Source: Arcobacteraceae bacterium (GTDB lineage: Bacteria > Campylobacterota > Campylobacteria > Campylobacterales > Arcobacteraceae). Taken from it: 64,000 nucleotides of DNA. The DNA is taken from contig OY782506.1 of assembly GCA_963677755.1 (NCBI GenBank), positions 958,137-1,022,136 on the forward strand. The letters run 5' to 3'. The notes beneath the pieces are model-generated. The model made no database searches. It had not been told where the DNA came from and saw nothing but the letters and a program-made list of their open reading frames with translations. Within the stretch, counting starts at the first letter, position 1, and every line of letters begins with the position of its first letter. Positions 26,446 through 48,726 of this stretch are shown piece by piece. The translations under genes were made by a program, and so were the position numbers.

Positions 26446-26446
26446 T

Positions 26447-27208: not shown

Positions 27209-27213
27209 AATCA

Positions 27214-29234: not shown

Positions 29235-29237
29235 AAA

Positions 29238-29513: not shown

Positions 29514-29524
29514 AGGGAAATTAG

Positions 29525-31276: not shown

Positions 31277-31284
31277 AAATTTAT

Positions 31285-32850
31285 CTATCCTTGTATTGGA
31301 ATTTTAATTATAAATAAAGAACACTTATCGTTATGAACATCATCTATTTTGTGGTAAATATTTTTGCAACTTATAAAACCATTCATATGTTTTTCAATAA
31401 TTTGTTTTGACATATAAAGTCCTATACCTGTACCCGCACTTTTGTACTTAGTTGTATAGTACGGTTCAAATATTTGCTCTATAATATTCTCATCTATTCC
31501 ACCACCATTGTCTATAAAATGGATAACTGCATATTCTTTGTATTTGCTTATAATTATTTTTATCATTTTATCATGTTTTATAGTAGTTGTTGCTAAAGCA
31601 TCTTTAGAATTAGAGATAATATTTAAAAAAACATGTGAGAGTTCGTTATAATATGTGTTTAATTCAATGTCACATCGTATCTCAAGTTTTAAACAAATTT
31701 TTTGTTTATCAAGTAAGTATTTTGATAATTCTACAGCATGTTCAGCACAATCATGTAAATAAAAGACACTTTTTGCTTTGTCAGGACTAAAAAAGTTTTT
31801 AAAATCATCAAGAGTATTGGACATGTTATTTGCTAAAAGAAGTGCATCTTGAACCTTAGTTTCCATATATTCATGGGTTAATTTTCCCATAGACATTTTT
31901 GTTTGAAACCCTTGTATTATCATAATTATAGAACTTAAAGGTTGTCTCCATTGATGAGCAATGTTATTAAGCATCTCTCCTAAACTTGCAAGTTTTGCTT
32001 GTTGAAACATAATAATATCTTTTTTTCTATTATTTGTTACCTCTTGAATTACCCTTTTTTCTAAAGAATTATTGAGTTTTTTCAGCTCTTTTGTTTTGTT
32101 TTCTATATTAACTTCTAATATCTTATGGAGGTTTTTAAAATTATTAATTAAAATCATTGATAGAGCAATTGAAAAAATAAATACCAAAATTATTGAGATG
32201 ACTGAACCTATAATTATAATATTAAAAACTTGTTGAGTTTCTATTTTTTCTTTTATAGCTAAAGATAAATCATAATTAATTAAACTTGTAATATATATGT
32301 TTATGGCATTAATTTCTAAATAAAGCTTTGTAAAATCATCTTTATTGTTGTTCTCTTTTATTTGTGAAAGAATGGTATTAATTAATACAATTTTTTTATC
32401 AATATTATTGATGACATTGATTTTTAAAACTTGGTCTTTTTTATGTGAAATATTTGGTTGTAAAAATTTTTTTATAAATTGAGTAAGATAAATTAATGGA
32501 GTATTTGTATTATTAGTTTCATGTTTATATTCATACCAATTTGATTTTATCAATTGCTTTGCTAATGTAATCACCTCTTTAGAATCTTCTAATGTAATAC
32601 TCTTATTTTCTACATCAATAAGAGTATCTTGTATATTTACTTTATAAGCATCTTTCATATTTTCTAGTTTAACAAACAGCGTTGTTCTTTGCTCAAATAA
32701 TTTATCAAAATCTTGCTTTATTGAAAATGTAGATATAAGTGAAAGGATTACAATTGTGAACATTCCTCCAGATATAACAAAAATAAGAAATTTTGTTTTA
32801 ATTTCAAAGTTTAATTGATTAAAATATGTAAAAATATCATTTAATTTCAT
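31285..32850 (-). CDS. sensor histidine kinase
   Basis: 521 aa. Two TM helices flanking a periplasmic domain, H-box NIAHQWRQPL, and ATPase motifs DNGGGID and GTGIGLY. Confidence 0.85.
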   Translation of the reverse strand: MKLNDIFTYFNQLNFEIKTKFLIFVISGGMFTIVILSLISTFSIKQDFDKLFEQRTTLFVKLENMKDAYKVNIQDTLIDVENKSITLEDSKEVITLAKQLIKSNWYEYKHETNNTNTPLIYLTQFIKKFLQPNISHKKDQVLKINVINNIDKKIVLINTILSQIKENNNKDDFTKLYLEINAINIYITSLINYDLSLAIKEKIETQQVFNIIIIGSVISIILVFIFSIALSMILINNFKNLHKILEVNIENKTKELKKLNNSLEKRVIQEVTNNRKKDIIMFQQAKLASLGEMLNNIAHQWRQPLSSIIMIIQGFQTKMSMGKLTHEYMETKVQDALLLANNMSNTLDDFKNFFSPDKAKSVFYLHDCAEHAVELSKYLLDKQKICLKLEIRCDIELNTYYNELSHVFLNIISNSKDALATTTIKHDKMIKIIISKYKEYAVIHFIDNGGGIDENIIEQIFEPYYTTKYKSAGTGIGLYMSKQIIEKHMNGFISCKNIYHKIDDVHNDKCSLFIIKIPIQG

Positions 32851-33989
32851 TCTTCAACCTTTATGAAGTTGTTATTTTCATATTTAAAAAGATACACTTT
32901 ATTAAAAAGTTGCTGGTTTTTATATTCAATTTTTAATCCTTTTAAAGTGTTTTGTGGAATTTTTTTTAATTCTTCAATAAACTTACTTCTAGTGATACTC
33001 CCTTTAATATTCTTTAGTGCTGTTACAACAATTTTTGCATTTAGAAATGCTTCAAGAGATATAAACCCAGCTTCATAGTTGGAATCATACGCTTTTAAAA
33101 TTTTGTGATACTCTTTAATGATAGGTATATCTAAATTATTATAGCTAGGTACAACCTGTGAAAATAAAATATTTTTTGTATGACCATCAAGCTTTTTTAT
33201 CATAGCACTTGCATCACCAAAAGAAATATTACAAAAGATAGTATTTTTAAAATTCTTATTTTTTTTAGCTTTTTTGATAAAAAGGGTATTCGCTTTATTT
33301 GCACCAACCATTATTATTGCCTCTGGTTTAGCATTATTAATTGCATGAAATGCATGCCTAATTGATAGTGTATTTCGCTTATAACTTCCTTCTGCTACCA
33401 ATGATAAATTATATTTTTTTAAAGTGTTGACAACACTTATATATCCATCTTCACCATATTCATCATTTTGATAAAATACTGCAATTTTCGTAAACCCTTT
33501 TTTATTATGAAGATATTTGATTTGCTCTTCTATCTCTTGCTGGTAAGAGCTTCTAAAATTAATTATATTTTCATAATAATCATCTCTTAAAAATGAAGCA
33601 CCAGTAAAAGCAGCAATAAATGGTATATCAGTTTGTCTTAATATTGGTAATATATTTTTTACCGTAGGAGTTCCTACAAATCCATATAATGCAAAAATTT
33701 TGTCATCTTTTATGAGCTTCTTTATGTTTTGTAATGTTAATTGAGGTTCATATTTGTCTTCATATGCTACAAGTTTTATTTTTTTATTATTTAATAGATT
33801 GTTAGTATTGATATGATGAAAATAAGCATTTGTACCTAGTTCAACGGCATTCCCAAGTTCCTTTATAGTCCCTGTTTTAGGCAATGAACTTCCTATATAG
33901 ATAATGTTATTATCAAAACTTTTTTCTTTAAAAAAAAGAAATCCAATAGCTACAGCAACAATAAGAATTAGTAATATAAGTTTTTTCAT
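32847..33989 (-). CDS. periplasmic binding protein, type 1 (Leu/Ile/Val-binding-like), probable sensor partner
   Basis: 380 aa. Signal peptide, a PBP1-like pattern (IYIGSSLPKTG...GFVGTPT...FTGAS), and a 4-nt overlap with the kinase gene. Confidence 0.75.
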   Translation of the reverse strand: MKKLILLILIVAVAIGFLFFKEKSFDNNIIYIGSSLPKTGTIKELGNAVELGTNAYFHHINTNNLLNNKKIKLVAYEDKYEPQLTLQNIKKLIKDDKIFALYGFVGTPTVKNILPILRQTDIPFIAAFTGASFLRDDYYENIINFRSSYQQEIEEQIKYLHNKKGFTKIAVFYQNDEYGEDGYISVVNTLKKYNLSLVAEGSYKRNTLSIRHAFHAINNAKPEAIIMVGANKANTLFIKKAKKNKNFKNTIFCNISFGDASAMIKKLDGHTKNILFSQVVPSYNNLDIPIIKEYHKILKAYDSNYEAGFISLEAFLNAKIVVTALKNIKGSITRSKFIEELKKIPQNTLKGLKIEYKNQQLFNKVYLFKYENNNFIKVEE

Positions 33990-34211
33990 AGGGAGATTTT
34001 ATCTAAATTACCTAAATTTTTAAATAAAGTGTTTAATTTAAGTAAACATTAAGAGTTTGAGTTATAAAATTGGTCAAATATTTTTTACCAAAATGAATTT
34101 TTTATATATTTTATTATTCAACTGAATAATTGGTTTTCCAATAAAATGATTACTAAATTATATAAAAAGATTTTGATTTTAGTTTAAATATTAAAAATGG
34201 TGTGAAAGTTG

Positions 34212-34238
34212 CCTTAAGAATTTCTATAATTTTTAAGG
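34212..34238 (+). promoter_or_regulatory. conserved leader: 9-bp inverted repeat bracketing a TATAAT box (copy 1)
   Basis: CCTTAAGAA-tttctataa-TTTTTAAGG with TATAAT at 34225-34230, 43 nt before ATG 34273. The same element is found at 42247-42273. Confidence 0.4.
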
Positions 34239-34272
34239 GGGCTTTTACCCATATAAATCTAAAGGAGTGAAG

Positions 34273-34497
34273 ATGGCTGAAGAGTTAAACGGTAGACGAA
34301 ATTTTATCAAACGAGCTGGTGTTGCTACGGCAGTGTTAGCTGGTTCAGTTGCTGCAGTTGCTGCAACATCAGAGGAGCATCACAGAGGAGCTGGGAGTGA
34401 AGTTGGTAACGGTGTTGTTACAGGAACTTCAAAAAAGAAAGAGATTTTATACGATAAAACTCAAGCTTGGCATCAATTTTATCAAGCTGCTAAATAA
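34273..34497 (+). CDS. small twin-arginine-signal protein of the formate-dehydrogenase-region TAT target type
   Basis: 74 aa from the ATG after AGGAG (the track starts 2 codons earlier at GTG 34267). NGRRNFIKRAGVATAVLAG Tat signal. Lies immediately upstream of fdhA. Confidence 0.75.
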   Translation: MAEELNGRRNFIKRAGVATAVLAGSVAAVAATSEEHHRGAGSEVGNGVVTGTSKKKEILYDKTQAWHQFYQAAK

Positions 34498-34512
34498 TTA
34501 AAAAGGGAAACA

Positions 34513-37311
34513 ATGAAATTAATTAAAAGTTTTAAGAGAAGAAATTTTTTAAAAATGGCTTCACTTGCAACAGCTGTAACAGCAACATCTGGCTTTGCTA
34601 GTACAAATGTTTTAAGAAGTGCAACTGAAGAAGAGATTAAAAACCCATTTCCAGGTTCTAAACTTGTTAAAACTATCTGTTCTTACTGTTCAGTAGGTTG
34701 TGGTGTAGTTGCTGAAGTTCAAAATGGTGTATGGGTAAGACAAGAGGTAGCTTCTGATCACCCTATAAGTCATGGAGGTCACTGTTGTAAAGGTGCTGAT
34801 ATGATTGATAAGGCACGAGCAACAAATAGACTTAAATATCCAATGGAAAAAGTTGATGGTAAATGGACTAGAGTATCTTGGGATAATGCAATGGGAAAAA
34901 TATCTGATAAATTGCAACAGTTAAAAGATGATTTCGGTCCAGATGCAGTACAGTTTATAGGTTCTTCAAAAGTTGGTAATGAGCAAGCATATTATATAAG
35001 AAAGTTTGCTTCTATGTTTGGAACAAATAATATTGACCAACAAGCTAGAATTTGTCACAGTCCAACAGTTGCAGGTGTTGCTAACACTTGGGGTTATGGA
35101 GCTATGACAAATCATATAGGTGACATGCAAAACTCAAAAGCGATTATTATATTCGGAGCAAATCCAGCTTCAAATCATCCAGTAGCTATGCAGCATATTT
35201 TAAAAGCAAAAGAACAAAATGGAGCAAAAATCATTGTTGTAGATCCAAGATATACTAAAACAGCTGCAAAAAGTGATCTTTTTTGTCGTGTAAGACCAGG
35301 TTCTGATATTGCTTTTATGTACGGTATGATTCGTCTTATCAAACATAATGGTTGGTTAGATAAGTCTTTTATTGCTGATAGAGTTTATGGTATGGAAGAG
35401 ATTTTAGAAGAGTGTGAAGCTTATACACCTGAACATGTTGAAGATGTAACAGGTTGTCCTAAAGAAGATCTTATTCAAGCTACTACAGTATTTGCTAAAG
35501 CTGAACCAGGTTCACTTATTTGGAACCAAGGGTTAACTCAACATACTATAGGTTCTTCAAATACAAGACTTGCAACAATCGTTCAATTAGCACTTGGAAA
35601 TATGGGTAAAACTGGTGGTGGATGTAATATCTTAAGAGGTCATGATAATGTTCAAGGTGCTACAGACTTAGGTTGTCTATCACATACACTTCCAGGATAT
35701 TATGGATTAAGTGAAGGTTCATGGAAATATTTTGCAAAACAGTGGAATGTAGATTATGAATGGCTTAAAGGGCAATTTAAATCTAAAGAACTTATGGAAA
35801 AAGAGGGATTTAGTTTAAGTTTATGGTTACATGGTGTTTTAGAAAAAAATAATGCTAAAAATAATGGTGGTACACCAATTAAAGCTTTAGTAGTTATAGG
35901 AAATGGTATCTCAACTATTACACAAACACATAAAGTAAAAGAAGCTTTAGATAAATTAGAGTTAGTTGTATTTATTGACCCTTTTGTTAATGATTCAGCT
36001 GTATTAACTACAAGAGACAACAACTTATTTATGTTGCCTGTTGCAACACAGATGGAAACTTCAGGGAGTATTGTTAATACATCAAGAAGTATCCAATGGC
36101 GTTCTAAAGTTATGGACCCAATGTATGAAACAAGACCAGATCATGAAATTTTATTTGATTTTGCTAAACGGTTGGGATTTTATGATCAACTTGTTGCTGG
36201 TATGGGTAAAGGTGATAAATATAATTGGCCAGAAGATGCTACAGATGAGATAGCAAAAGCTCTTAAAACTATTGGTATGCAAGGTAGAACAGCCAAGCGT
36301 ATTAAAAAACATACTGAAAATTGGCACTTATTTGATAGTGTATCACTAAAAGGTAAAGGTGCACTTTCAAAAGAGTATTATGGTTTACCATGGCCTTGTT
36401 GGACAGAACAACATCCTGGAAGTCCTGTATTATATAATACTAATTTACCAGTAAACCAAGGTGGTATGGGATTTAGAGCTAGATTTGGACTTCAAAGAGA
36501 TGGAAAAAATCTTCTTGCTGCACAAGGGAGTGCTCCTAAAGGTTCTAAAATAAAAGGTGGATATGCAGAAATTACATATAAAAATGTTGAAGAACTTACA
36601 GGTATTAAGCTAACTGCTGCTGAGAAAAAAGCGGTTGAGGGTAAAAACTGGAAAACAGATGATAGTGGTATTTTAAATAAATATGCAATTGAAGCTGGAC
36701 TTGCTCCTTATGGAAATGCAAGAGCTAGAACTATTGTTTGGAACTTTACAGATCAAATCCCTAAACATAGAGAGCCTTTACACTCACCAAGACCAGATTT
36801 AGTAAAACAATACCCATCAGTTCGAGATAAAAAGAACTATTATAGAACAGATGTACGGTATGAATCTGAACAAAAAGCTCAAGAGTGGGTAAAAGATTAT
36901 CCTACAAGTATAGTTTCAGGAAGAATTGTTGAACACTTTGGTTCAGGGACAGAAACAAGAGCATCAAAATATCTTGCAGAGTTATCTGGTGAGATGTATG
37001 GTGAAGTACATCCTAATTTTGCAGCCTCTTTAGGGATTAAAGATGGTGATATGATGTGGGTTTATGGAACTGCTGAAGGAAAAATAAAAGTAAAATGTAA
37101 ATATAGCTACACAGTTGCAGAAAACTATGTATTTTTACCACAAAACTTCTCAGGAGTATTTAGTGGAGAGAGCTTGGAAAGTAAATATCCAGAGGGTACA
37201 AAACCATATATGTATGGTGAGTCGTCAAATTCAATTACAAGTTATGGATTTGATCAAGAAACAGGTTGTCCAGAGACTAAATGTTCTTTGGTAAGACTAG
37301 AAAGAGCATAG
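34513..37311 (+). CDS. fdhA: formate dehydrogenase catalytic subunit, Cys-type (Mo/W-bisPGD enzyme)
   Basis: 932 aa. Tat signal KRRNFLKMASLA, N-terminal FeS motif CSYCSVGCG, and active-site context QQARICHSPTVAG with Cys where copy 2 has TGA. Confidence 0.9.
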   Translation: MKLIKSFKRRNFLKMASLATAVTATSGFASTNVLRSATEEEIKNPFPGSKLVKTICSYCSVGCGVVAEVQNGVWVRQEVASDHPISHGGHCCKGADMIDKARATNRLKYPMEKVDGKWTRVSWDNAMGKISDKLQQLKDDFGPDAVQFIGSSKVGNEQAYYIRKFASMFGTNNIDQQARICHSPTVAGVANTWGYGAMTNHIGDMQNSKAIIIFGANPASNHPVAMQHILKAKEQNGAKIIVVDPRYTKTAAKSDLFCRVRPGSDIAFMYGMIRLIKHNGWLDKSFIADRVYGMEEILEECEAYTPEHVEDVTGCPKEDLIQATTVFAKAEPGSLIWNQGLTQHTIGSSNTRLATIVQLALGNMGKTGGGCNILRGHDNVQGATDLGCLSHTLPGYYGLSEGSWKYFAKQWNVDYEWLKGQFKSKELMEKEGFSLSLWLHGVLEKNNAKNNGGTPIKALVVIGNGISTITQTHKVKEALDKLELVVFIDPFVNDSAVLTTRDNNLFMLPVATQMETSGSIVNTSRSIQWRSKVMDPMYETRPDHEILFDFAKRLGFYDQLVAGMGKGDKYNWPEDATDEIAKALKTIGMQGRTAKRIKKHTENWHLFDSVSLKGKGALSKEYYGLPWPCWTEQHPGSPVLYNTNLPVNQGGMGFRARFGLQRDGKNLLAAQGSAPKGSKIKGGYAEITYKNVEELTGIKLTAAEKKAVEGKNWKTDDSGILNKYAIEAGLAPYGNARARTIVWNFTDQIPKHREPLHSPRPDLVKQYPSVRDKKNYYRTDVRYESEQKAQEWVKDYPTSIVSGRIVEHFGSGTETRASKYLAELSGEMYGEVHPNFAASLGIKDGDMMWVYGTAEGKIKVKCKYSYTVAENYVFLPQNFSGVFSGESLESKYPEGTKPYMYGESSNSITSYGFDQETGCPETKCSLVRLERA

Positions 37312-37320
37312 GAGTAAGAT

Positions 37321-37914
37321 ATGAATAATAAACCAGATTTTGCAAGAATGAAGTTCTATTGTGATGAAAACCTATGTATCGATTGTAATGGTTGTGTAGT
37401 AGCTTGTAAAGAAGCACATGAAGTTCCAGTTGGTGTAAATAGAAGAAAAGTAGTTACAGTAAACGAAGGTATAGTAGGGCAAGAGATATCAGTATCAATG
37501 GCGTGTATGCATTGTGCTGATGCACCATGTCAACAAGTATGTCCAACAGACTGTTTTTATATAAGAGCAGATGGAATTGTTTTACATGATAAAGATAAAT
37601 GTATAGGTTGTGGATATTGTCTATTTGCTTGTCCTTTTGGAGCTCCACAGTTTCCAAAAGATGGTGCTTTTGGTACTAAAGGGAAAATGGATAAATGTAC
37701 AATGTGTGCAGGGGGACCTGAAGAGACTAATTCACACGAAGAGTTCGAGAAATATGGACAAAACAGAATTAGTGAAGGGAAAGTTCCTATGTGTGCATCA
37801 ATGTGTTCAACAAAAGCTTTACTTGTAGGTGATGCAGATGAAGTAGCACTTATTAAAACATATAGAGCTACAACAAAAGGGAAAGGTATAGCTACTGAAC
37901 CTATGGGATGGTAG
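37321..37914 (+). CDS. fdhB: formate dehydrogenase iron-sulfur subunit
   Basis: 197 aa with four ferredoxin-type Cys clusters (CIDCNGCVVACK, CMHCADAPCQQVCP, CIGCGYCLFACP, CTMC...CASMCS). Confidence 0.9.
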   Translation: MNNKPDFARMKFYCDENLCIDCNGCVVACKEAHEVPVGVNRRKVVTVNEGIVGQEISVSMACMHCADAPCQQVCPTDCFYIRADGIVLHDKDKCIGCGYCLFACPFGAPQFPKDGAFGTKGKMDKCTMCAGGPEETNSHEEFEKYGQNRISEGKVPMCASMCSTKALLVGDADEVALIKTYRATTKGKGIATEPMGW

Positions 37915-37923
37915 GAGATAATT

Positions 37924-38880
37924 ATGGAAAATACTAACACATTTTTTAGTAGAAATAAAGCCTATATCTTTACTCTATTAGGACTTACTATAGCTGCTAT
38001 TATTATGGGTGGTTTTATGATGATCTTTGATTGGGGATATTTAGTAAAATATATCCTTGATATGATCACAGGAGCAGGGGTAAGTGGAGTTGTAACTCCA
38101 CCTACTTCAAACTATGAAACTATGGTAAATGCAGCCTTTGGACCAAACTATAATACAATTGCACCTGAGATTATCCGTGCTAGTAACGAGAGACAAGAAT
38201 ATATTTGGTGGGTATTTGTAGCGGAGATTGCAATATTTTGTTTTATGTATGCAAAATATGGTAGAAAAACTGCAATAGTAACAAACCCAGATGATCAAGT
38301 GCAAGTGTTCTCTTTATTTCATAGAACTGTGATGTGGTTAAATGTAATCATTATCATTACACTTATAATATCAGGATTTAATATCACATGGTCATTGCGT
38401 TCAGGTGGTGGTGAGATCCCATTTCTTTTACGTGGATTACATGAAGTGACAGGATTAGTATGGTTTCCATTTTGGTTACTCCTTACTATTATAGCTTTTA
38501 AAGATGCAAAATTACTTTCAAGTAATAGTGTACTGAAAAAGATTATATTACCTGGAAAATTTAAACCAATGAAAAGAGTGATTTATATTGTATTTGTAGC
38601 TATGGGAACTGGTCTTTTAGCAAGTGGTTTTCTTATTTGGTTTTTACATCCAGATACTTTTACCCATGCTAGTTTAATACAGTTTAAAAGAGTGTTACTT
38701 TATGTTCACTTCGCTTCTAGTGTTTTAATTATGTTCTTTATTATGGACTTTGTATATTCTATTTTAATATCAATAAAAGGGAATTTAAAAGGGTTAATTA
38801 CAGGAAAGTATCCAAGAGAACATTTAGAACAATTAGCACCAGATGTTTTAGCTGATATTGATAGTATAAAAGGAAACTAA
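37924..38880 (+). CDS. fdhC: formate dehydrogenase membrane cytochrome b subunit
   Basis: 318 aa polytopic membrane protein with conserved His residues, in the canonical fdhABC position. Confidence 0.8.
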   Translation: MENTNTFFSRNKAYIFTLLGLTIAAIIMGGFMMIFDWGYLVKYILDMITGAGVSGVVTPPTSNYETMVNAAFGPNYNTIAPEIIRASNERQEYIWWVFVAEIAIFCFMYAKYGRKTAIVTNPDDQVQVFSLFHRTVMWLNVIIIITLIISGFNITWSLRSGGGEIPFLLRGLHEVTGLVWFPFWLLLTIIAFKDAKLLSSNSVLKKIILPGKFKPMKRVIYIVFVAMGTGLLASGFLIWFLHPDTFTHASLIQFKRVLLYVHFASSVLIMFFIMDFVYSILISIKGNLKGLITGKYPREHLEQLAPDVLADIDSIKGN

Positions 38881-38881
38881 G

Positions 38882-39709
38882 ATGACTAAGCCTATGAGAA
38901 GTGAGAACTTCTCCCTTCTAAAAACTAAACTCAATGATTACTGTAAAGAGATAATTATTGAAAAAGTTTATGAAGATGAGATTGAAACACTTGAAGATTA
39001 TGTAATTAAAGAAGACAAAATAGAATTTTACCTTAATGGTAAAAGATTTTTGTCTGTTATGAGTATTGCTCAGTATCAAGATGCACATATTATTGGTTTC
39101 TTACTTTCAGAAGCTGTTATTAAAAGTTATGATGATATAAAATCAGTAAAAATTGATGAAGATGGATTAAAAGTTCGTATCAAAGCAAATGTAAGTAAAG
39201 TAGGGTACCAAAATCTTTTTAAAGAGAAAACATTAACTTCAGGTTGTTGTGTTGGTGTAACTGGTAATGCAGAGAAAACATTTAATTGTTCATTTGTAAA
39301 TACAGATTATACTATTGACTCAAAAGAGATTTTACATCATATGAAAGAGTTTAATAGCCCTAGTGTATTGTTTGATAATACAGGTTGTGTACATAAAGCA
39401 GAACTTGTATTAGAAGATGGTACTTTTTATGTAGCTGAAGATATAGGGAGACACAACGCAATAGATAAAGTTGTTGGTCTTGCATCTATGGATAGAAAAG
39501 ATATTAAAAAATCTATTTTATACGCTAGTGGTAGATTGTCTATGGAGATGGTAGTAAAATGTGTAATGCATAGAATACCAATAGTAGTTTCAAAAGCTGC
39601 TGTTACCTTACAAGGTATTAAATCTGCAAACGAACATGGTATAACTCTTATTGGGTTTGCTAGAGATAGAAAAATGAATGTTTATACACATTCTGGAAGA
39701 ATAGCTTAA
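38882..39709 (+). CDS. fdhD: formate dehydrogenase accessory sulfurtransferase FdhD
   Basis: 275 aa. FdhD motifs TSGCCVG and EDIGRHNAIDKV. Confidence 0.9.
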   Translation: MTKPMRSENFSLLKTKLNDYCKEIIIEKVYEDEIETLEDYVIKEDKIEFYLNGKRFLSVMSIAQYQDAHIIGFLLSEAVIKSYDDIKSVKIDEDGLKVRIKANVSKVGYQNLFKEKTLTSGCCVGVTGNAEKTFNCSFVNTDYTIDSKEILHHMKEFNSPSVLFDNTGCVHKAELVLEDGTFYVAEDIGRHNAIDKVVGLASMDRKDIKKSILYASGRLSMEMVVKCVMHRIPIVVSKAAVTLQGIKSANEHGITLIGFARDRKMNVYTHSGRIA

Positions 39710-39966
39710 ATAATTAAATAGTATAAGTACATTGGTATGAAATAAAAAATTATTTCTATCGTACTTAGACTATAATAACAATAAAAAAATAATTAAAAAC
39801 TCCCCTATTTACAAGCACTTTTTATAATATGACCAATAAAAATTATTAATACAGATAACCTTCACGAGAATAGATAAAATATTTAAATAAATTTTACTAT
39901 TTAAGGGTAAGTTAAGAGGTTGAATAATAAAATATAGTCAAATATGTTTTACCAAAAAGGAAAAAG

Positions 39967-41637
39967 ATGCAAGAGTTTATATATTATAACCCAAATGGTT
40001 TAGAGTTTCCTCTAAGTGAAGCCATAAATGTTGTTTCATCTACTGTAGATAATGAGGACAATAAATATATTGTATCAAACTCAAAAGAGACAAATAGTGA
40101 AGTGGTTGCAAAAGAGATAGATTTTTATATTAAAAATAGTAGAGATGCTTTAACTGAAAAAATGACTAATGTTCCAAAGTTATATGATATAGCTGTAACA
40201 AAATATGATAATGCTCAAGATTTAGATTATACACAAAAAGTAGAAAATAAACTTTTAGCAGTTGGTAATGCTGAACAATTAAAAGAATTCGCAAAACAAA
40301 TAGAAATAGAAGAGTTTGATTTATATGTTATTAATGAAGATAATATTAAGTCAATAAGTGGACATATTGGAAATTTAGATGTTATTGTTATTTCAAATGA
40401 AAAAGAAGTTTTACTACAAGTTGATCAAATAGTTTGGTTTGACGCTAAAGAGGAAGGACTTAAACAAAGTGGTACTTTTGATCCATTGGCAACATCGATT
40501 GAAGATACTGTTGCAACTTTAAGAGAAAATATTAAAAACTATAACTATAAAAAATATATCACATACAACTCATCGTTTTGTCAATATCATGAAAGAAGAG
40601 ATGAAACCTGTGCAAAATGTGTAGAGGTTTGTCCTACAACAGCTATTACAAAAATAGATGAACTTAAACATTTAGAATTTTCAGATATAGATTGTGTAGG
40701 GTGTGGTGGATGTGTGAGTGTTTGTCCAACAGCTGCAATTGATTATGCAATGTTTAATAAAGATTCAATATATGAGGTGAGCTATTTTTATACAGATACA
40801 CACCCTTTGATTATTCCAAATAAAATGGATATAGAAAATCTTACTGTTGATTTAAAAGAGGGAGTTTTACCACTTTGTATTGAAGGTGAAAAGTTTTTAG
40901 ATGAAGCATCATTTATTACATTAACTCAAATGTCTGGTTCTCAAGTGATTTTTTATAGTGACTTTTTATCAAAAGGTACAAAAGATTCAATAGATATTTT
41001 AAATGCAATCTATCAAAAAAAGTATTCAAAAGATGCTATTTTAGTAGCTGCTACAGTTGAAGAACTAGAAGCCTGTATAAATGAAGTTTCTTTTATAGAA
41101 AATTCAAAGTTTAATACAAACCAAAAAAACCAAAGAAAAAGAGAAACTTTTTCATTTAGATTACAACATTTAGTTGGTGATGAGGATTTAGGTGTTGTAA
41201 AAACAGGTGAACATATTCATTATTCAAAAGTTGAAGTTAATGAGTCAAACTGTACTTTATGTTTATCATGTGTTGGGGCTTGTAATGTAGATGCACTTGT
41301 GGCAGACCCAAGAGATAATACTTTACGAATCAATCCAAGTCTTTGTACCTCATGTGGGTATTGTGAAGTGTCTTGTCCAGAGAAAGATTGTTTAACAATC
41401 AAACGAGATGAGATAGAGCTAAATCCAATGTGGTTTAAAGAAAATATTATAGCAAAAGATACACTGTTTGCTTGTGTAGAGTGTGGAAAAGAGTTTGCAC
41501 CTAAAAAAGCAGTTGAAAAAATAGCAGATATGATGGCACCACTTTTTGCATCAGACCCAGTAAAACAAAGAACACTTTACTGTTGTGAAGATTGTAAAGC
41601 AAAATTAATGATAAAACAAGGATTATTAAATGGATAA
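39967..41637 (+). CDS. multi-[4Fe-4S] ferredoxin-domain protein, FDH-associated
   Basis: 556 aa. Motifs CAKCVEVCP, CVGCGGCVSVCP, CTLCLSCVGACN and CTSCGYCEVSCP, plus a C-terminal CVECG...CCEDCK Zn-ribbon-like end. The N-terminal ~200 aa carry no recognised domain. Confidence 0.75.
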   Translation: MQEFIYYNPNGLEFPLSEAINVVSSTVDNEDNKYIVSNSKETNSEVVAKEIDFYIKNSRDALTEKMTNVPKLYDIAVTKYDNAQDLDYTQKVENKLLAVGNAEQLKEFAKQIEIEEFDLYVINEDNIKSISGHIGNLDVIVISNEKEVLLQVDQIVWFDAKEEGLKQSGTFDPLATSIEDTVATLRENIKNYNYKKYITYNSSFCQYHERRDETCAKCVEVCPTTAITKIDELKHLEFSDIDCVGCGGCVSVCPTAAIDYAMFNKDSIYEVSYFYTDTHPLIIPNKMDIENLTVDLKEGVLPLCIEGEKFLDEASFITLTQMSGSQVIFYSDFLSKGTKDSIDILNAIYQKKYSKDAILVAATVEELEACINEVSFIENSKFNTNQKNQRKRETFSFRLQHLVGDEDLGVVKTGEHIHYSKVEVNESNCTLCLSCVGACNVDALVADPRDNTLRINPSLCTSCGYCEVSCPEKDCLTIKRDEIELNPMWFKENIIAKDTLFACVECGKEFAPKKAVEKIADMMAPLFASDPVKQRTLYCCEDCKAKLMIKQGLLNG

Positions 41638-42226
41638 TAAAAGTATAGATAAAGCAAGATGCTTTTTATATGAAACACTAGCACTTCTTTTTGTAGAGGA
41701 ACATACAAAAAATAGTAAAAAACATATAATTGAGAATTTAAAACAAATTGCATTAAACCCTTTTGATGAAGAAGTTGGTGATGTTTCAAAACAGATTGTT
41801 GAACTTCTTGAAAATGGTGAAGAGGATATACTTTATAAAGAGTATCAAGATCTATTTCTAGTCCCTTTTGGTGCAAATATATCACTAAGTGCTTCTTGGT
41901 ATTATGAGGAGAGAGAATGTGGTGAGATGTTGGTAAAAGTAAGAGATATTTTAGCGAATACTCAAATCAGAAAAGATGAAAACTTATTTAAAGCACCAGA
42001 AGATAACTTTGGGTTTATTTTTACTTTATCTTCATATTTACTTGAAGAGAGTAACGATGATACAAATAAAGAGTTACAAAAAAAATTATTTGAAGAGGTT
42101 GTTAATCCTTACTTTGAAAGACTTTATATCTCTTTATTATCAAGTAAATCACCTATTTATTCTTTAGTAGGGATTATTCTTGGTGATTTTTTAAGTATGG
42201 AGAGAACCTATTTAAATTTAGGATAG
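41630..42226 (+). CDS. TorD/DmsD-family redox enzyme maturation chaperone
   Basis: 198 aa and all-helical, with the YQDLFLVPFG motif typical of the TorD family. 8-nt overlap with the ferredoxin gene. Confidence 0.7.
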   Translation: MDNKSIDKARCFLYETLALLFVEEHTKNSKKHIIENLKQIALNPFDEEVGDVSKQIVELLENGEEDILYKEYQDLFLVPFGANISLSASWYYEERECGEMLVKVRDILANTQIRKDENLFKAPEDNFGFIFTLSSYLLEESNDDTNKELQKKLFEEVVNPYFERLYISLLSSKSPIYSLVGIILGDFLSMERTYLNLG

Positions 42227-42246
42227 AAGAATGGTGGTGAAAGTCG

Positions 42247-42273
42247 CCTTAAGAATTTCTATAATTTTTAAGG
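42247..42273 (+). promoter_or_regulatory. conserved leader: inverted repeat bracketing TATAAT (copy 2)
   Basis: Same CCTTAAGAA-N9-TTTTTAAGG element, with TATAAT at 42260-42265. Confidence 0.4.
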
Positions 42274-42307
42274 GGGCTTTGACCCACATAAATTTAAAGG
42301 AGTGAAG

Positions 42308-42532
42308 ATGGCTGAAGAGTTAAACGGTAGACGAAATTTTATCAAACGAGCTGGTGTTGCTACGGCGGTGTTAGCTGGTTCTGTTGCTGCAGTTGCTGCA
42401 ACCTCAGAAGATCACCATCGAGGAGATGGAGGTGAAGTTGGTAACGGTGTTGTTACTGGAACTTCAACAAAGAAAGAGATTTTATACGATAAAACTCAAG
42501 CTTGGCATGAATTTTATCAAGCTGCTAAATAA
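42308..42532 (+). CDS. small twin-arginine-signal protein (FDH-region TAT target), paralog 2
   Basis: 74 aa and near-identical to the 34273 product, differing at a handful of residues. Confidence 0.75.
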   Translation: MAEELNGRRNFIKRAGVATAVLAGSVAAVAATSEDHHRGDGGEVGNGVVTGTSTKKEILYDKTQAWHEFYQAAK

Positions 42533-42548
42533 ATAAAAAGGAAAAAAC

Positions 42549-45347
42549 ATGAAACTGTTAAAAAGTTTTGGAAGAAGAAGTTTTTTAAAAATGGCTTCAC
42601 TTGCAACAGCTGTAACAGCAACATCTGGCTTTGCTAGTACAAATGTTTTAAGAAGTGCAACTGAAGAAGAGATTAAAAATCCATTCCCAGGTTCTAAACT
42701 TGTTAAAACTATATGTACACATTGTTCAGTAGGTTGTGGTGTTGTAGCTGAAGTTCAAAATGGTGTATGGGTAAGACAAGAAGTTGCTCAAGATCACCCT
42801 ATAAGTCATGGAGGTCACTGTTGTAAAGGTGCTGATATGATTGATAAGGTAAGAGGAACAAACAGACTTAAATATCCTATTGAAAAAGCTAACGGAAGTT
42901 GGAATAGATTAAGCTGGGATGATGCTATGAGTAAAGTAACTGATAAGTTAACAGCTCTTAGAGATCAATTTGGTCCAGATGCAATCCAATTTTTAGGATC
43001 AGCTAAAGTAAGTAATGAGCAAGCTTTCTATATAAGAAAATTTGCAGCTATGTTTGGAACAAACAACATAGATCACCAAGCTAGAATTTGACATAGTCCA
43101 ACAGTTGCCGGTGTGGCAAATACATGGGGTTATGGAGCTATGACAAATCATATAGGTGACATGCAAAACTCAAAAGCGATTATTATATTCGGAGCAAATC
43201 CAGCTTCAAATCATCCAATAGCGATGCAACATATATTAAAAGCAAAAGAACAAAATGGTGCAAAAATTATTGTAATTGATCCAAGATATACAAAAACTGC
43301 TGCGAAATCAGATGTGTACTGTAGAATTAGAACAGGTACTGATATTGCGTTTATGTATGGAATGATTAGACTTATTAGAGATAATAACTGGGTTGATAAA
43401 TCATTTATTGCAGATAGAGTTTATGGAATGGAAGATATTTTCACAGAATGTGAAAAATTTACACCAGAGCATGTAGAAGATGTGACAGGTTGTCCAAAAG
43501 AGTTATTGATTCAAGCTACAACTGCATTTGCAACAGCAGATCCAGGATGTTTAATTTGGAATCAAGGATGGACTCAACACACAATCGGTTCTTCAAATAC
43601 AAGATTAGGTTCTATTTTACAACTTACATTAGGAAACATGGGTAAACCAGGTGGAGGATGTAATATTTTAAGAGGACATGATAATGTACAAGCATCAACA
43701 GATTTAGGTTGTCTAGCTGATACACTACCAGGGTATTATGGTTTAAGTGAAGGTTCGTGGAAATACTTCTCGAAACAATGGAATGTAGATTATGATTGGT
43801 TAAAAGGTCGATTTAAATCTAAAAAAATGATGGAATCAAAAGGATTTAGTCTAGGGCTTTGGATACATGGTGTTTTAGAAAAAGAAAATGCCGCAAATAA
43901 TGCTGACACTCCTTTAAAAGCTTTAGTATGTATAGGGAATGGTATTTCAACTATTACACAAACACATAAAGTAAAAGAAGCATTAGATAAGCTAGACTTA
44001 GTTGTCTTTATTGATCCATATGTAAATGATGCTGCTGTTATTACAACAAGAGGTGACAATATGTTCCTTTTACCAGCTGCTTCACAAGTTGAAACAAGTG
44101 GTACAGTTGTAAATACTGCTCGTAGTGCACAATGGAGAACAAAAGTTGTAGATCCACTTTATGAGGCAAGACCAGATCAAGAGATATTATTTGACTTTGC
44201 TAAAAGAATGGGATTTTATGATGAGTATATTGCAGGTATGGGTAAAGGTGATAAATTTACTTGGCCAGAAGATGCTACAAATGAGATTGCAAGAAGTTTA
44301 AAAACTATTGGTTTCCAAGGTAGAACAGCTGAGCGTATTAAAAAACATACTGAAAATTGGCACTTATTTGATAGTGTATCACTTAAAGGTAAAGGTGTTA
44401 CCCAAAAAGAGTACTATGGTTTACCATGGCCTTGTTGGACAGAAGAACATCCAGGAAGTCCTGTTTTATATAATATTAATTTACCAGTATCACAAGGTGG
44501 TATGGGATTTAGAAATAGATTTGGAACAGAACGAAATGGAGCTGATTTACTTTCTGCAAAAGGAAGTGCACCAGTTGGTTCTAAAGTTGATGGTGGATAT
44601 GCTGAAATTACATATAAAAATATTGAAGAGTTAGCTGGTATAACTTTAACTGCTGCTGAGAAAAAAGCGGTTGAGGGTAAAAACTGGAAAACAGATGATA
44701 GTGGTATTTTAAATAAATATGCAATTGAAGCTGGACTTGCTCCTTATGGAAATGCAAGAGCTAGAACTATTGTTTGGAACTTTATTGATAATATTCCTAA
44801 ACATAGAGAGCCATTGCATTCATTTAGACCAGATTTAGTGAAAAAATATCCAGCAGTAAAAGATAGAAAAAATCACTACAGAACAAATGTACGATATGAA
44901 ACTGAACAAAATGCACAAAATTGGGTAAAAGATTATCCAGTAAATATTGTTTCAGGAAGAATTGTTGAGCATATGGGAACAGGAACAGAAACAAGAGCAT
45001 CAAAATATCTTGCAGAGTTATCTGGTGAGATGTATGGTGAAGTGCATCCTAATCTTGCAGCTAAACTTGGTATCAAAGATAATGAGATGATGTGGGTTTA
45101 TGGAACAGGTGAAGGTAAGATTAAAATCAGATGTAAACACTCTTTTAGAGTTGATGAAAATTCTGTATTTTTACCACAAAACTTCTCAGGAATGTGGAGT
45201 GGAGAGAGCTTAGAAAGTAAATATCCAGAGGGTACTGCACCACATAGTTTCGGTGAAAGTTCAAACCAAGTTACAAGTTATGGTTATGACCAACAAACAT
45301 CTTGTCCAGAGACTAAATGTTCTTTGGTAAGACTAGAAAGAGCATAG
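42549..45347 (+). CDS. fdhA: formate dehydrogenase catalytic subunit, selenocysteine-type (TGA 43089-43091 read as Sec)
   Basis: Track ORFs 42549-43091 and 43113-45347 are in the same frame. The sequence across the TGA reads HQARI-U-HSPTVAGVANTWGYGAMTNH and is collinear with QQARICHSPTVAG of copy 1. selA, selB, selC and selD are all in this window. Confidence 0.88.
43103..43121 (+). promoter_or_regulatory. candidate bacterial SECIS hairpin
   Basis: TTGCC-GGTGT-GGCAA stem-loop (43105-43119, extendable by A43103-T43121) beginning 11-13 nt after the UGA. The equivalent segment of the Cys paralog (GTTGCAGGTGTTGCTAAC) does not form this stem. Confidence 0.55.
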
Positions 45348-45356
45348 GAGTAAGAT

Positions 45357-45950
45357 ATGAATAATAAACCAGATTTTGCAAGAATGAAGTTCTATTGTGA
45401 TGAAAACCTATGTATCGATTGTAATGGTTGTGTAGTAGCTTGTAAAGAAGCACATGAAGTTCCAGTTGGTGTAAATAGAAGAAAAGTAGTTACAGTAAAC
45501 GAAGGTATAGTAGGGCAAGAGATATCAGTATCAATGGCGTGTATGCATTGTGCTGATGCACCATGTCAACAAGTATGTCCAACAGACTGTTTTTATATAA
45601 GAGCAGATGGAATTGTTTTACATGATAAAGATAAATGTATAGGTTGTGGATATTGTCTATTTGCTTGTCCTTTTGGAGCTCCACAGTTTCCAAAAGATGG
45701 TGCTTTTGGTACTAAAGGGAAAATGGATAAATGTACAATGTGTGCAGGGGGACCTGAAGAGACTAATTCACACGAAGAGTTCGAGAAATATGGACAAAAC
45801 AGAATTAGTGAAGGGAAAGTTCCTATGTGTGCATCAATGTGTTCAACAAAAGCTTTACTTGTAGGTGATGCAGATGAAGTAGCACTTATTAAAACATATA
45901 GAGCTACAACAAAAGGGAAAGGTATAGCTACTGAACCTATGGGATGGTAG
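45357..45950 (+). CDS. fdhB: formate dehydrogenase iron-sulfur subunit, copy 2
   Basis: 197 aa, identical to the 37321 product. Confidence 0.9.
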   Translation: MNNKPDFARMKFYCDENLCIDCNGCVVACKEAHEVPVGVNRRKVVTVNEGIVGQEISVSMACMHCADAPCQQVCPTDCFYIRADGIVLHDKDKCIGCGYCLFACPFGAPQFPKDGAFGTKGKMDKCTMCAGGPEETNSHEEFEKYGQNRISEGKVPMCASMCSTKALLVGDADEVALIKTYRATTKGKGIATEPMGW

Positions 45951-45959
45951 GAGATAATT

Positions 45960-46916
45960 ATGGAAAATACTAACACATTTTTTAGTAGAAATAAAGCCTA
46001 TATCTTTACTCTATTAGGACTTACTATAGCTGCTATTATTATGGGTGGTTTTATGATGATCTTTGATTGGGGATATTTAGTAAAATATATCCTTGATATG
46101 ATCACAGGAGCAGGGGTAAGTGGAGTTGTAACTCCACCTACTTCAAACTATGAAACTATGGTAAATGCAGCCTTTGGACCAAACTATAATACAATTGCAC
46201 CTGAGATTATCCGTGCTAGTAACGAGAGACAAGAATATATTTGGTGGGTATTTGTAGCGGAGATTGCAATATTTTGTTTTATGTATGCAAAATATGGTAG
46301 AAAAACTGCAATAGTAACAAACCCAGATGATCAAGTGCAAGTGTTCTCTTTATTTCATAGAACTGTGATGTGGTTAAATGTAATCATTATCATTACACTT
46401 ATAATATCAGGATTTAATATCACATGGTCATTGCGTTCAGGTGGTGGTGAGATCCCATTTCTTTTACGTGGATTACATGAAGTGACAGGATTAGTATGGT
46501 TTCCATTTTGGTTACTCCTTACTATTATAGCTTTTAAAGATGCAAAATTACTTTCAAGTAATAGTGTACTGAAAAAGATTATATTACCTGGAAAATTTAA
46601 ACCAATGAAAAGAGTGATTTATATTGTATTTGTAGCTATGGGAACTGGTCTTTTAGCAAGTGGTTTTCTTATTTGGTTTTTACATCCAGATACTTTTACC
46701 CATGCTAGTTTAATACAGTTTAAAAGAGTGTTACTTTATGTTCACTTCGCTTCTAGTGTTTTAATTATGTTCTTTATTATGGACTTTGTATATTCTATTT
46801 TAATATCAATAAAAGGGAATTTAAAAGGGTTAATTACAGGAAAGTATCCAAGAGAACATTTAGAACAATTAGCACCAGATGTTTTAGCTGATATTGATAG
46901 TATAAAAGGAAACTAA
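45960..46916 (+). CDS. fdhC: formate dehydrogenase cytochrome b subunit, copy 2
   Basis: 318 aa, identical to the 37924 product. Confidence 0.8.
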   Translation: MENTNTFFSRNKAYIFTLLGLTIAAIIMGGFMMIFDWGYLVKYILDMITGAGVSGVVTPPTSNYETMVNAAFGPNYNTIAPEIIRASNERQEYIWWVFVAEIAIFCFMYAKYGRKTAIVTNPDDQVQVFSLFHRTVMWLNVIIIITLIISGFNITWSLRSGGGEIPFLLRGLHEVTGLVWFPFWLLLTIIAFKDAKLLSSNSVLKKIILPGKFKPMKRVIYIVFVAMGTGLLASGFLIWFLHPDTFTHASLIQFKRVLLYVHFASSVLIMFFIMDFVYSILISIKGNLKGLITGKYPREHLEQLAPDVLADIDSIKGN

Positions 46917-46917
46917 G

Positions 46918-47745
46918 ATGACTAAGCCTATGAGAAGTGAGAACTTCTCCCTTCTAAAAACTAAACTCAATGATTACTGTAAAGAGATAATTATTGAAAA
47001 AGTTTATGAAGATGAGATTGAAACACTTGAAGATTATGTAATTAAAGAAGACAAAATAGAATTTTACCTTAATGGTAAAAGATTTTTGTCTGTTATGAGT
47101 ATTGCTCAGTATCAAGATGCACATATTATTGGTTTCTTACTTTCAGAAGCTGTTATTAAAAGTTATGATGATATAAAATCAGTAAAAATTGATGAAGATG
47201 GATTAAAAGTTCGTATCAAAGCAAATGTAAGTAAAGTAGGGTACCAAAATCTTTTTAAAGAGAAAACATTAACTTCAGGTTGTTGTGTTGGTGTAACTGG
47301 TAATGCAGAGAAAACATTTAATTGTTCATTTGTAAATACAGATTATACTATTGACTCAAAAGAGATTTTACATCATATGAAAGAGTTTAATAGCCCTAGT
47401 GTATTGTTTGATAATACAGGTTGTGTACATAAAGCAGAACTTGTATTAGAAGATGGTACTTTTTATGTAGCTGAAGATATAGGGAGACACAACGCAATAG
47501 ATAAAGTTGTTGGTCTTGCATCTATGGATAGAAAAGATATTAAAAAATCTATTTTATACGCTAGTGGTAGATTGTCTATGGAGATGGTAGTAAAATGTGT
47601 AATGCATAGAATACCAATAGTAGTTTCAAAAGCTGCTGTTACTTTACAAGGTATTAAATCTGCAAATGAACATGGTATAACTCTTATTGGGTTTGCTAGA
47701 GATAGAAAAATGAATGTTTATACACATTCTGGAAGAATTAATTAG
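46918..47745 (+). CDS. fdhD: FdhD sulfurtransferase, copy 2
   Basis: 275 aa, identical to copy 1 except the last residue (N versus A). Confidence 0.9.
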   Translation: MTKPMRSENFSLLKTKLNDYCKEIIIEKVYEDEIETLEDYVIKEDKIEFYLNGKRFLSVMSIAQYQDAHIIGFLLSEAVIKSYDDIKSVKIDEDGLKVRIKANVSKVGYQNLFKEKTLTSGCCVGVTGNAEKTFNCSFVNTDYTIDSKEILHHMKEFNSPSVLFDNTGCVHKAELVLEDGTFYVAEDIGRHNAIDKVVGLASMDRKDIKKSILYASGRLSMEMVVKCVMHRIPIVVSKAAVTLQGIKSANEHGITLIGFARDRKMNVYTHSGRIN

Positions 47746-48726
47746 ATGGTTAAGTTAAATTGTTTACAATACAAACGAGCTGACCATTTAACTATTACAA
47801 ATGATTATAGTGTAAGTGCTTTAGTATCAAATGAGGAATTTGATGCTTTGTGCTTACGTTATTATAAAAAGTTTGAATATCCAAGTTTAAAAACATTTTC
47901 TCTATTAAAAGAGGGTTTTTTAGGATTGTTTTTAGAGTTAGAGGGAAAAATTGCTGTCAGTGTTGGAGAAACACAAGCGGTAATTGATGGTGCAAAATTA
48001 TACGAGAAATTGGGTTTTGAAATTCAATGGGTTAATTTAAAAAAAGATGGAACAGTAAATCTCTATGATTTAAAAGATAAAAATATAGATTTCTTGTTCT
48101 TATCTTCTTATGTGATGGATACTTTTGCAAAAATAGATTTAAAAAGAATTAAAAGATATACAAAAGCAAAAATCATCTCAAATGGAACAGCACATAAAGA
48201 TACTTTAAGTGATGCAATTTATTTTGATAATTATAAGTTAACAGGTTTCTCTGTCTCAGCAGTATTGTTATTTAAAAATGATTTATTTGAACTTTTACCT
48301 GTTGGACAAATAGATTCAGTTGCTTTAAAAATATGTTATGATGCATTGGAAAAGCAAAATTTTAATAATAATATGAAACCATTATTTATTGAACACCTTC
48401 TTGAAATATTTAATGATGATATTTGTTTTTTTGTGAATCATAAAAGAACATTGCCATACTCTTTACATTTTGGTTTAAAGTATATAAAAGCAAGAGAGTT
48501 AATACGAACAATGGCTTTAAATAAAATATATATAACAAATGGGGAAGGGTGTTCTTTAGGTTTTTCAAAACCATCTAGAATAGTACAAGAAATGGGATAT
48601 GATGAAACTAGAAGTAGATGTGCAATATCATTATCTTTTGATCAAGAGCTAACTCCTGAAGAGATAAAAAAAGTAGTAGAAACTATGTATAAAAAATATA
48701 AACAAATACGAGCATTAAATAATTAA
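47746..48726 (+). CDS. short NifS/IscS-like (class V aminotransferase fold) protein
   Basis: 326 aa. GTAHKDTLSDAIYF resembles the SAHK PLP-lysine motif, ITNGEGCSLG resembles the active-site Cys loop, and RCAISLSF resembles the C-terminal IRFSL motif. ATG directly abuts the fdhD stop (TAGATG). Confidence 0.55.
   Translation: MVKLNCLQYKRADHLTITNDYSVSALVSNEEFDALCLRYYKKFEYPSLKTFSLLKEGFLGLFLELEGKIAVSVGETQAVIDGAKLYEKLGFEIQWVNLKKDGTVNLYDLKDKNIDFLFLSSYVMDTFAKIDLKRIKRYTKAKIISNGTAHKDTLSDAIYFDNYKLTGFSVSAVLLFKNDLFELLPVGQIDSVALKICYDALEKQNFNNNMKPLFIEHLLEIFNDDICFFVNHKRTLPYSLHFGLKYIKARELIRTMALNKIYITNGEGCSLGFSKPSRIVQEMGYDETRSRCAISLSFDQELTPEEIKKVVETMYKKYKQIRALNN

Follow-up and report, generated by a model that had tools for sequence, protein, structure and literature searches.

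Organisation of the fdh locus

A 64,000-nt stretch of the genome of an Arcobacteraceae bacterium (NCBI GenBank assembly GCA_963677755.1, contig OY782506.1, positions 958,137 to 1,022,136 of the forward strand; hereafter the window, to whose first letter all positions refer) carries two collinear formate dehydrogenase (fdh) operons, one with a cysteine (Cys) codon and one with a selenocysteine (Sec) codon in the gene for the catalytic subunit. The operons lie in direct repeats at 34202-39709 and 42237-47745, each made up of a leader hairpin, the gene of a small protein with a twin-arginine translocation (Tat) signal, fdhA (932 codons), fdhB, fdhC and fdhD (Table 1). The offset between the repeats is 8035 nt and becomes 8036 nt after a 1-nt indel near the stop codon of the small gene, the spacing of 8036 nt between two collinear units given in a preliminary description of the sequence being borne out. 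The start of the small Tat gene of unit 1 was set at the conserved ATG, the mechanical open reading frame (ORF) beginning at GTG 34267. A polyferredoxin gene and a TorD-family gene (fdhM) sit between the two units and an IscS-like gene lies 3' of unit 2. These three are the single-copy genes of the locus and belong to the downstream operon, the upstream Cys unit having none of its own.

The gene sets of the two units differ only in FdhA, in five of the 74 residues of the small Tat protein (genes 93.8% identical at the nucleotide level) and in the last residue of FdhD. The preliminary description had FdhB, FdhC and FdhD all identical, which holds for FdhB and FdhC and fails for FdhD at residue 275 alone (A275 vs N275). 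It had further taken the electron-transfer and anchor subunits to be shared between two catalytic subunits; this is not so, as fdhBCD is duplicated and each unit has its own copy.

Identity of the encoded proteins

Both units are predicted to encode a Tat-exported, periplasmic, membrane-anchored formate dehydrogenase with a molybdenum- or tungsten-bis(pyranopterin guanine dinucleotide) cofactor, together with the maturation factor FdhD. Both FdhA copies have twin-arginine signals (RRNFLK and RRSFLK), a CxxCxxxC Fe4S4 motif and, in Pfam, molybdopterin oxidoreductase and dinucleotide-binding domains. C/U181-H182 and ILRGHDNVQ were found in both, with the Arg of the RGH(D/S)NVQ motif kept; by analogy with FdhH and FdnG, this would be the catalytic Arg. 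Both copies score under the equivalog cut-offs of TIGR01591 and TIGR01553, and are therefore neither FdhF-type nor Fdh-N-type. The nearest solved structure is PDB 9vap_A (E = 5e-293), whose ARICHS active site makes it a solved Cys-type member of the same subfamily. FdhB was recognised by NF038355 (FDH3_beta, 330 bits vs a 240-bit cut-off) and matches 9vap_B (E = 9e-78), FdhC by PF01292 as a cytochrome b561-type anchor (43.9 bits vs 30.1), and FdhD by NF001943 (321.8 bits vs 269). No solved homologue, 9vap included, was found for FdhC or for the small Tat protein, the gene of which precedes fdhA in all relatives.

The TorD-family gene corresponds to fdhM of Campylobacter jejuni, which encodes a TorD-like chaperone specific to formate dehydrogenase (PMC4148689). 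The IscS-like protein resembles the C-terminal part of IscS/NifS over residues 192-324 only, has no Pfam match, and is encoded 3' of fdhD in all relatives; it could either donate sulfur specifically to FdhD or be its degenerate partner.

Selenocysteine codon, SECIS element and selenium genes

Codon 181 is TGT in fdhA1 and TGA in fdhA2, in the context ARI-C/U-HSPTVAG, so that the Cys and TGA reported at the same FdhA codon are confirmed in both copies, and the TGA is the sole internal stop of fdhA2. In alignments, the TGA at 43089 stands opposite Cys181 of FdhA1 and opposite a TGA in 22 distinct relatives. For comparison, 64 related loci (cited below by L numbers) were collected in a scan of species-representative genomes, and the 48-nt stretch around the putative selenocysteine insertion sequence (SECIS) was compared between 22 distinct Sec-type and 18 distinct Cys-type sequences.

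In fdhA2 the UGA is followed by an apical hairpin (Table 1). In the Sec-type sequences 99.1% of the stem cells are paired, third-codon positions within the stem do not vary, and pair 18-30 shows the covarying states UA/CG/GC; the observed score was reached by 0 of 500 shuffles. Only 80% of cells are paired in the same stretch of the Cys-type sequences, where third-codon positions vary freely, and one pair of the fdhA1 counterpart is a U-U mismatch. Single-sequence folding with RNAfold gave similar energies for the Cys and Sec copies; the comparative analysis alone told them apart. In the published SECIS of Epsilonproteobacteria the apical hairpin is 5/6 bp long and a G in the loop is invariant (PMC4607533), a description that the fdhA2 hairpin fits. 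Because of this fit, and of the conservation and covariation of the stem in Sec-type as against Cys-type sequences, we regard fdhA2 as a genuine selenoprotein gene, and consider that constraint on the SECIS has been lost in the Cys lineage.

The selenium machinery, said in the preliminary description to be nearby, is present within the window about 20 kb upstream as selA, selB, selC and selD, with matches of selA, selB and selD to TIGR00474, TIGR00475 and TIGR00476 that exceed the cut-offs. The FdhT/YedE-like gene noted at 29525-30562 does belong to the PF04143 superfamily of sulphur transporters, but it was not recognised as YedE or FdhT at the equivalog level: it reaches 72 bits vs 350 with NF033796 and 65 vs 200 with TIGR04112, and its best match is the thiosulfate transporter TsuA (86 bits vs a 400-bit cut-off). 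It adjoins MerT-like and HMA-domain genes and has no TusA-like FdhU/YedF partner.

An unrelated chemoreceptor gene separates tRNA-Sec from selD. Beside selD, a cluster of selenium/metal flavour (25123-30562) holds a double-cubane-cluster reductase with its activase (25123-27208), a stand-alone homologue of the C-terminal half of YedF (27245-27583, minus strand, above the TIGR03527 cut-off), a Tat-signal transglutaminase-like protein, MerT-like and HMA/CopZ-like genes (28866-29513) and the YedE/YeeE-family transporter. The YedF-like ORF was also considered as a TGA-interrupted gene and rejected, as no TusA-like domain was found upstream behind a TGA.

Divergence of the catalytic subunits

FdhA1 and FdhA2 are identical at 767 of 933 aligned positions including the stop (82.2%) and their genes differ at 481 of 2796 nt, in keeping with the clear divergence that had been noted by eye. 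The synonymous divergence (dS) is 0.57 and the ratio of nonsynonymous to synonymous divergence (dN/dS) 0.21, with both reading frames intact. In a neighbour-joining tree FdhA1 groups with the Cys forms of L001, L002 and L003 (bootstrap 200/200) in a clade that falls outside that of all Arcobacteraceae Sec forms, and FdhA2 pairs with the Sec-type FdhA of Arcobacter sp. 15-2 (92% identity, bootstrap 200/200). Conserved in five genomes or more, the Cys clade still has the outgroup residues at positions 341, 354, 461 and 883, and is set apart from all Arcobacteraceae Sec forms by 13 fixed differences, among them H176Q, five residues ahead of the active site. Taken together, the tree, the outgroup residues and the values of dS and dN/dS therefore indicate that fdhA1 and fdhA2 are paralogues of old standing and that purifying selection acts on both; FdhA2 belongs to the ancestral Sec lineage and FdhA1 to a distinct Arcobacteraceae Cys clade. 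Exact look-ups with FdhA1 and FdhB matched no record, and a large protein search returned only partial proteins of at most 81% identity and was uninformative on the spread of the Cys clade.

Residue 176 (35038-35040 vs 43074-43076) is Gln in five of five Arcobacteraceae Cys-type FdhAs, whereas other Cys-type lineages and PDB 9vap keep His at this position, -5 from the active site. H176Q may be a lineage-specific co-adaptation to Cys. The Cys-type FdhA of Candidatus Marinarcus sp. PCE-1 (L049, 10001-12796) has the Cys-clade residues 58Y, 152S, 176Q, 341L, 354A, 514M and 809F together with Sec-clade residues at 461, 510, 520, 799 and 883, and appears to be a Cys/Sec mosaic, that is, a recombinant of the two paralogue types.

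The locus in related genomes

In the usual Arcobacteraceae layout, the minus strand carries genes for a response regulator, a histidine kinase and a binding protein, and then follow a promoter-region module, polyferredoxin, fdhM, the small Tat gene, fdhA(Sec), fdhB, fdhC, fdhD and the IscS-like gene, most relatives having a single fdh copy at the locus. Compared with this order, the downstream (Sec) operon of the window appears to keep the ancestral layout of the family and the upstream Cys operon to be an extra unit, inserted between the binding-protein gene and the module preceding polyferredoxin. The layout of the window recurs in the metagenome-assembled genome (MAG) UBA4036 (Cys copy in L001, Sec copy in L008). 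In MAG SZUA-449 (L003, L006) the Cys unit is placed 3' of the IscS-like gene instead. L002 and L049 have the Cys type only, in the ancestral position, and no selD was found in the 10 kb upstream of them, the place where other relatives carry it, so that the Cys enzyme is apparently able to stand alone.

Arcobacter iocasae (L015, 3293-18291) has a tandem Sec/Sec duplicate of polyferredoxin, fdhM, small Tat gene, fdhA(Sec), fdhB and fdhC with the copies 7207 nt apart, equal in their identity to the query, and with fdhD in the second unit only; duplication of the fdh operon is therefore recurrent in the Arcobacteraceae. The small Tat genes of SZUA-449 (L003 2708-2923, L006 9755-9775) look disrupted, one having an early stop and the other a divergent C-terminus, which could be a sequence error of the MAG or real decay.

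Probable gene conversion around the catalytic genes

Across fdhB, fdhC and most of fdhD the two units show no difference over 2341 nt (37266-39606 vs 45302-47642). The identity fades gradually in fdhD, with six differences in its last 103 nt. The identity of the fdhBCD copies is best read as the result of gene conversion or of a very recent partial duplication, rather than of sharing. Exact tracts of 138, 99 and 93 nt were also found inside fdhA, compared with a random 95th percentile of 47 nt and a maximum of 78 nt. These tracts are 69-95% identical to the orthologues, and nucleotide-level constraint therefore does not explain them. One spans the Tat signal peptide and another starts at 35089, just beyond the position of the SECIS.

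For the leader and small Tat gene, identity is 94-95% between the units of the window and 97-100% between those of UBA4036, as against 72-77% between these genomes, so these sequences cluster by genome, whereas FdhA clusters by type. This pattern, in which the flanks follow the genome and the core follows the type, looks like the one classically left by recurrent gene conversion that selection opposes. For the MAGs, the repeat structure was inferred from contig ends: the two UBA4036 contigs share a terminal 21 nt at the 3' end of fdhA and the two SZUA-449 contigs a terminal ~170 nt of fdhB, as would be expected of short-read assemblers at exact repeats. The distribution of the tracts points to conversion having stopped short of the Sec/Cys codon and the SECIS, and to the segment from codon 176 to the SECIS as the selected core.

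Regulatory features

An 80-nt promoter-region module occurs twice in the window, and its copies align locally with a score of 81, the shuffled maximum being 44. Its palindrome has the consensus GGTAAAA-N4-TTTTACC and in the window the form GTCAAATATTTTTTACC, both copies sharing the variant GTCAAA. In all Arcobacteraceae relatives the module stands directly before the polyferredoxin start codon, abutting the ribosome-binding site; examples are L002, L004, L007, L013 and L049, and in L001 a module lies 5' of the small Tat gene. It may act as the operator to which the adjacent response regulator binds, or form a hairpin in the 5' RNA. Because the module is duplicated, we suggest that both operons answer to the same initiation signal, which may come through the syntenic two-component system. 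The C-terminal region of its response regulator is unusual and RepL-like. The trio of genes that encodes this regulator, the histidine kinase and the Peripla_BP_6 protein is syntenic with fdh in every Arcobacteraceae relative and is a candidate sensor and regulatory system for formate or a related signal.

The 108-nt spacer at 34094-34201, between the first module and the Cys unit, was searched for remnants of polyferredoxin and fdhM and scored no better than shuffles; a full duplication followed by deletion is therefore not demonstrated. The leader hairpin of each unit is followed by the T-run GGGGCTTTTTACCC. It was also found in L001-L015, L049, L050 and L054, between fdhM and the small Tat gene, and RNAalifold on 18 sequences gave 19 pairs, seven with compensatory changes. 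No credible Rfam family was found for it, and it could be an attenuator, a processing site or a stabiliser. A scan for sigma-70 promoters and terminators was uninformative in this AT-rich DNA (66 promoter-like sites vs 72.9 expected).

Table 1. Features of the fdh locus and of the selenium genes in the window
Feature	Position	Strand	Evidence or remark
selB	17909-19735	-	NCBIfam
selA	19716-21065	-	NCBIfam
tRNA-Sec (selC)	21119-21213	+	ARAGORN; Rfam RF01852
selD, Cys-type	23771-24808	-	NCBIfam
response regulator, histidine kinase, periplasmic binding protein	30614-33989	-	divergent from fdh region
promoter-region module, copy 1	34014-34093	+	upstream of Cys unit; ends in palindrome GTCAAATATTTTTTACC
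leader hairpin, unit 1	34204-34246	+	~19 bp, terminator-like; marks left edge of repeat
small Tat-signal protein, unit 1	34273-34497	+	74 aa; TIGR01409 Tat signal match
fdhA1, Cys-type catalytic subunit	34513-37311	+	Cys181 = TGT, 35053-35055; PF04879, PF00384, PF01568
exact repeat block, copy 1	37266-39606	+	2341 nt, 0 differences vs 45302-47642
fdhB1, four-cluster ferredoxin subunit	37321-37914	+	NF038355 FDH3_beta
fdhC1, cytochrome b membrane anchor	37924-38880	+	PF01292
fdhD1, sulfurtransferase for cofactor sulfuration	38882-39709	+	NF001943
promoter-region module, copy 2	39877-39957	+	directly 5' of polyferredoxin start codon
polyferredoxin, single copy	39967-41637	+	556 aa; multiple Fer4 domains; in all relatives, head of ancestral operon
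fdhM-like TorD-family Tat chaperone, single copy	41630-42226	+	PF02613, 66 bits
leader hairpin, unit 2	42239-42281	+	~19 bp, terminator-like
small Tat-signal protein, unit 2	42308-42532	+	alignment to unit 1 copy
fdhA2, Sec-type catalytic subunit	42549-45347	+	in-frame TGA 43089-43091
SECIS apical hairpin UUGCC-GGUGU-GGCAA	43105-43119	+	begins 13 nt past UGA; 5-bp stem, loop GGUGU
fdhB2	45357-45950	+	identical to fdhB1
fdhC2	45960-46916	+	identical to fdhC1
fdhD2	46918-47745	+	one residue off fdhD1
IscS-like protein, single copy	47746-48726	+	326 aa; weak IscS/NifS matches; synteny

Discussion

One genome thus holds two intact paralogues (dN/dS 0.21) with Sec and Cys at the same catalytic position, and a selenium-dependent enzyme with a selenium-independent isoenzyme is a plausible, and in our view the best, reading of the pair. 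The UGA of fdhA2 would be read through by means of its canonical SECIS and the products of selA, selB, selC and selD. Both enzymes would use the same partners and, because their Tat signal peptides are nearly identical, presumably the single FdhM chaperone. Both operons would probably be switched on by the same signal through the duplicated promoter modules, and selenium supply would decide, after initiation, which enzyme is completed. With selenium, the more active Sec enzyme would be made. Without it, ribosomes would stop at the UGA of fdhA2, and the loss of coupling, or polarity, would lower transcription of its fdhBCD. The Cys operon has an fdhBCD set of its own and would still yield active enzyme; such polarity would be a reason to keep the partner genes in both units. 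As a whole, this explanation of an ancestral Sec operon with an extra Cys unit, gene conversion around fdhA and a choice of enzyme by selenium supply is considered probable. A stronger version, in which the Sec/Cys dimorphism has long been maintained by selection across several Arcobacteraceae lineages as an island of divergence inside a gene-conversion field, homogenised to within 34 nt of the Sec codon and to just past the SECIS, with the duplicated fdhBCD kept owing to UGA-linked polarity, is offered tentatively, as possible but somewhat short of probable.

Several observations weigh against this explanation. The near-identical duplicated modules show no sign of selenium-specific promoter control and argue against separate control of the two operons at transcription initiation, and the leader hairpin in front of each unit is terminator-like. 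The Cys unit seems to rely on expression of fdhM, polyferredoxin and the IscS-like gene from the other operon. The reading of the YedE-like gene as FdhT is not supported. Finally, a recent partial duplication with replacement by a foreign fdhA allele could mimic ongoing conversion.

This last history, a recent tandem duplication of the Sec unit followed by homologous recombination with a horizontally acquired Cys-type fdhA and without ongoing conversion, would account for the sharp bounds of the divergent segment, and for FdhA1 being 90-91% identical to the Cys-type FdhA of UBA4036 and L002 when their neighbouring genes are only 52-68% identical to those of the window. However, UBA4036 is distant (polyferredoxin 63% identical) and has the same upstream placement of the Cys unit, again with leaders and small Tat genes 97-100% identical and with contigs that break where the copies become identical; SZUA-449 has identical fdhB copies in a different arrangement, and there are several separate exact tracts inside fdhA. 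Three independent events of duplication plus replacement would be needed, and because of this required occurrence in three genomes we consider a single duplication and replacement the weaker alternative, and an unlikely one. That the perfect identity over 2341 nt is an artefact of assembly or polishing is very improbable. Exact repeats of this size can be homogenised when reads are mis-mapped during polishing, but polishing could not erase divergence as large as that in fdhA, the identity ends in a graded way within fdhD, and two further genomes, both short-read MAGs, have contig breaks at these boundaries, as real near-identical repeats would cause.

With regard to function, the isoenzymes might instead be specialised for molybdenum or tungsten, for oxygen tolerance (these bacteria being aerotolerant), or for catalytic direction or affinity, the Sec/Cys exchange being one of several adaptive changes. 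Formate dehydrogenase isoenzymes selected by molybdenum or tungsten availability are known in Desulfovibrio, the 13 fixed differences including H176Q would fit such specialisation, and the presence of the same promoter module on both operons leaves no obvious selenium switch. Against this, Sec to Cys is the only change at a known catalytic residue, the Cys-only relatives without selD in the 10 kb upstream link the Cys form to selenium-free life, and experimental precedent favours selenium control (PMC3892789); we therefore hold such specialisation to be a minor, rather improbable alternative. A redundant Cys copy drifting to loss, or a TGA copy that is a pseudogene, is hardly credible. Most relatives do have a single copy at the locus, but the dN/dS between the copies, their intact frames and the conservation of the Cys clade in at least five genomes speak against drift, and the TGA is followed by a conserved SECIS and recurs in 22 distinct Sec-type relatives.

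Comparable systems are known. The selenium-free Cys isoenzymes of Methanococcus (hydrogenases and formate dehydrogenase) are repressed when selenium is available; these sets differ from the window in being archaeal, in the location of the SECIS and in having a dedicated transcriptional regulator. C. jejuni and Wolinella succinogenes share the FdhABC architecture and the accessory genes fdhM and fdhD with the window. W. succinogenes is said to have two nearly identical fdh operons, which we take to be of the same (Cys) type and not a Sec/Cys pair. The FdhA of C. jejuni contains Sec (PMC6682613) and is encoded in a single Sec operon, in contrast to the Sec/Cys pair of the window. In Aliarcobacter butzleri RM4018, a member of the same bacterial family, one selenocysteine and one cysteine formate dehydrogenase homologue were reported and regulation by selenium was suggested (Miller et al. 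2007, PMC2147049). The idea is the same as that put forward here, given in one sentence; the paper describes neither the tandem layout with identical fdhBCD nor the duplicated module, nor how old the Cys clade is or how its SECIS has decayed.

The mechanism proposed for the window is drawn by analogy from Treponema primitia, which also has a paralogous pair, fdhF(Sec) and fdhF(Cys). Selenium favours the Sec gene there, and without selenium the transcript is truncated 3' of the UGA with loss of transcription-translation coupling (Matson et al., PMC3892789). Those enzymes, from an acetogenic spirochaete, are cytoplasmic, of the FdhF type and encoded by single genes without duplicated partners, whereas the enzymes of the window would be periplasmic and respiratory and are encoded by full operons. 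Sec/Cys formate dehydrogenase pairs are thus already known in Arcobacter, with experimental precedents in T. primitia and Methanococcus. Within the literature searched, novelty appears to lie in a tandem layout whose partner genes are perfectly homogenised, in an Arcobacteraceae Cys clade that is old and monophyletic and whose SECIS has decayed, and in the duplication of the promoter module.

As the basic idea is not new, the value of the locus lies more in being a good experimental system than in discovery. It offers a natural comparison of Sec and Cys catalysis between FdhAs that are 82% identical and have identical FdhB and FdhC partners, and it clearly illustrates concerted evolution from which one part is exempted by selection. 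Campylobacterota use formate as a major electron donor, and their Sec-dependent formate dehydrogenase is limited by the supply of selenium. If the proposed explanation is true, the Cys isoenzyme would explain how some Arcobacteraceae respire formate under selenium scarcity, and how lineages shed the selenocysteine machinery altogether.

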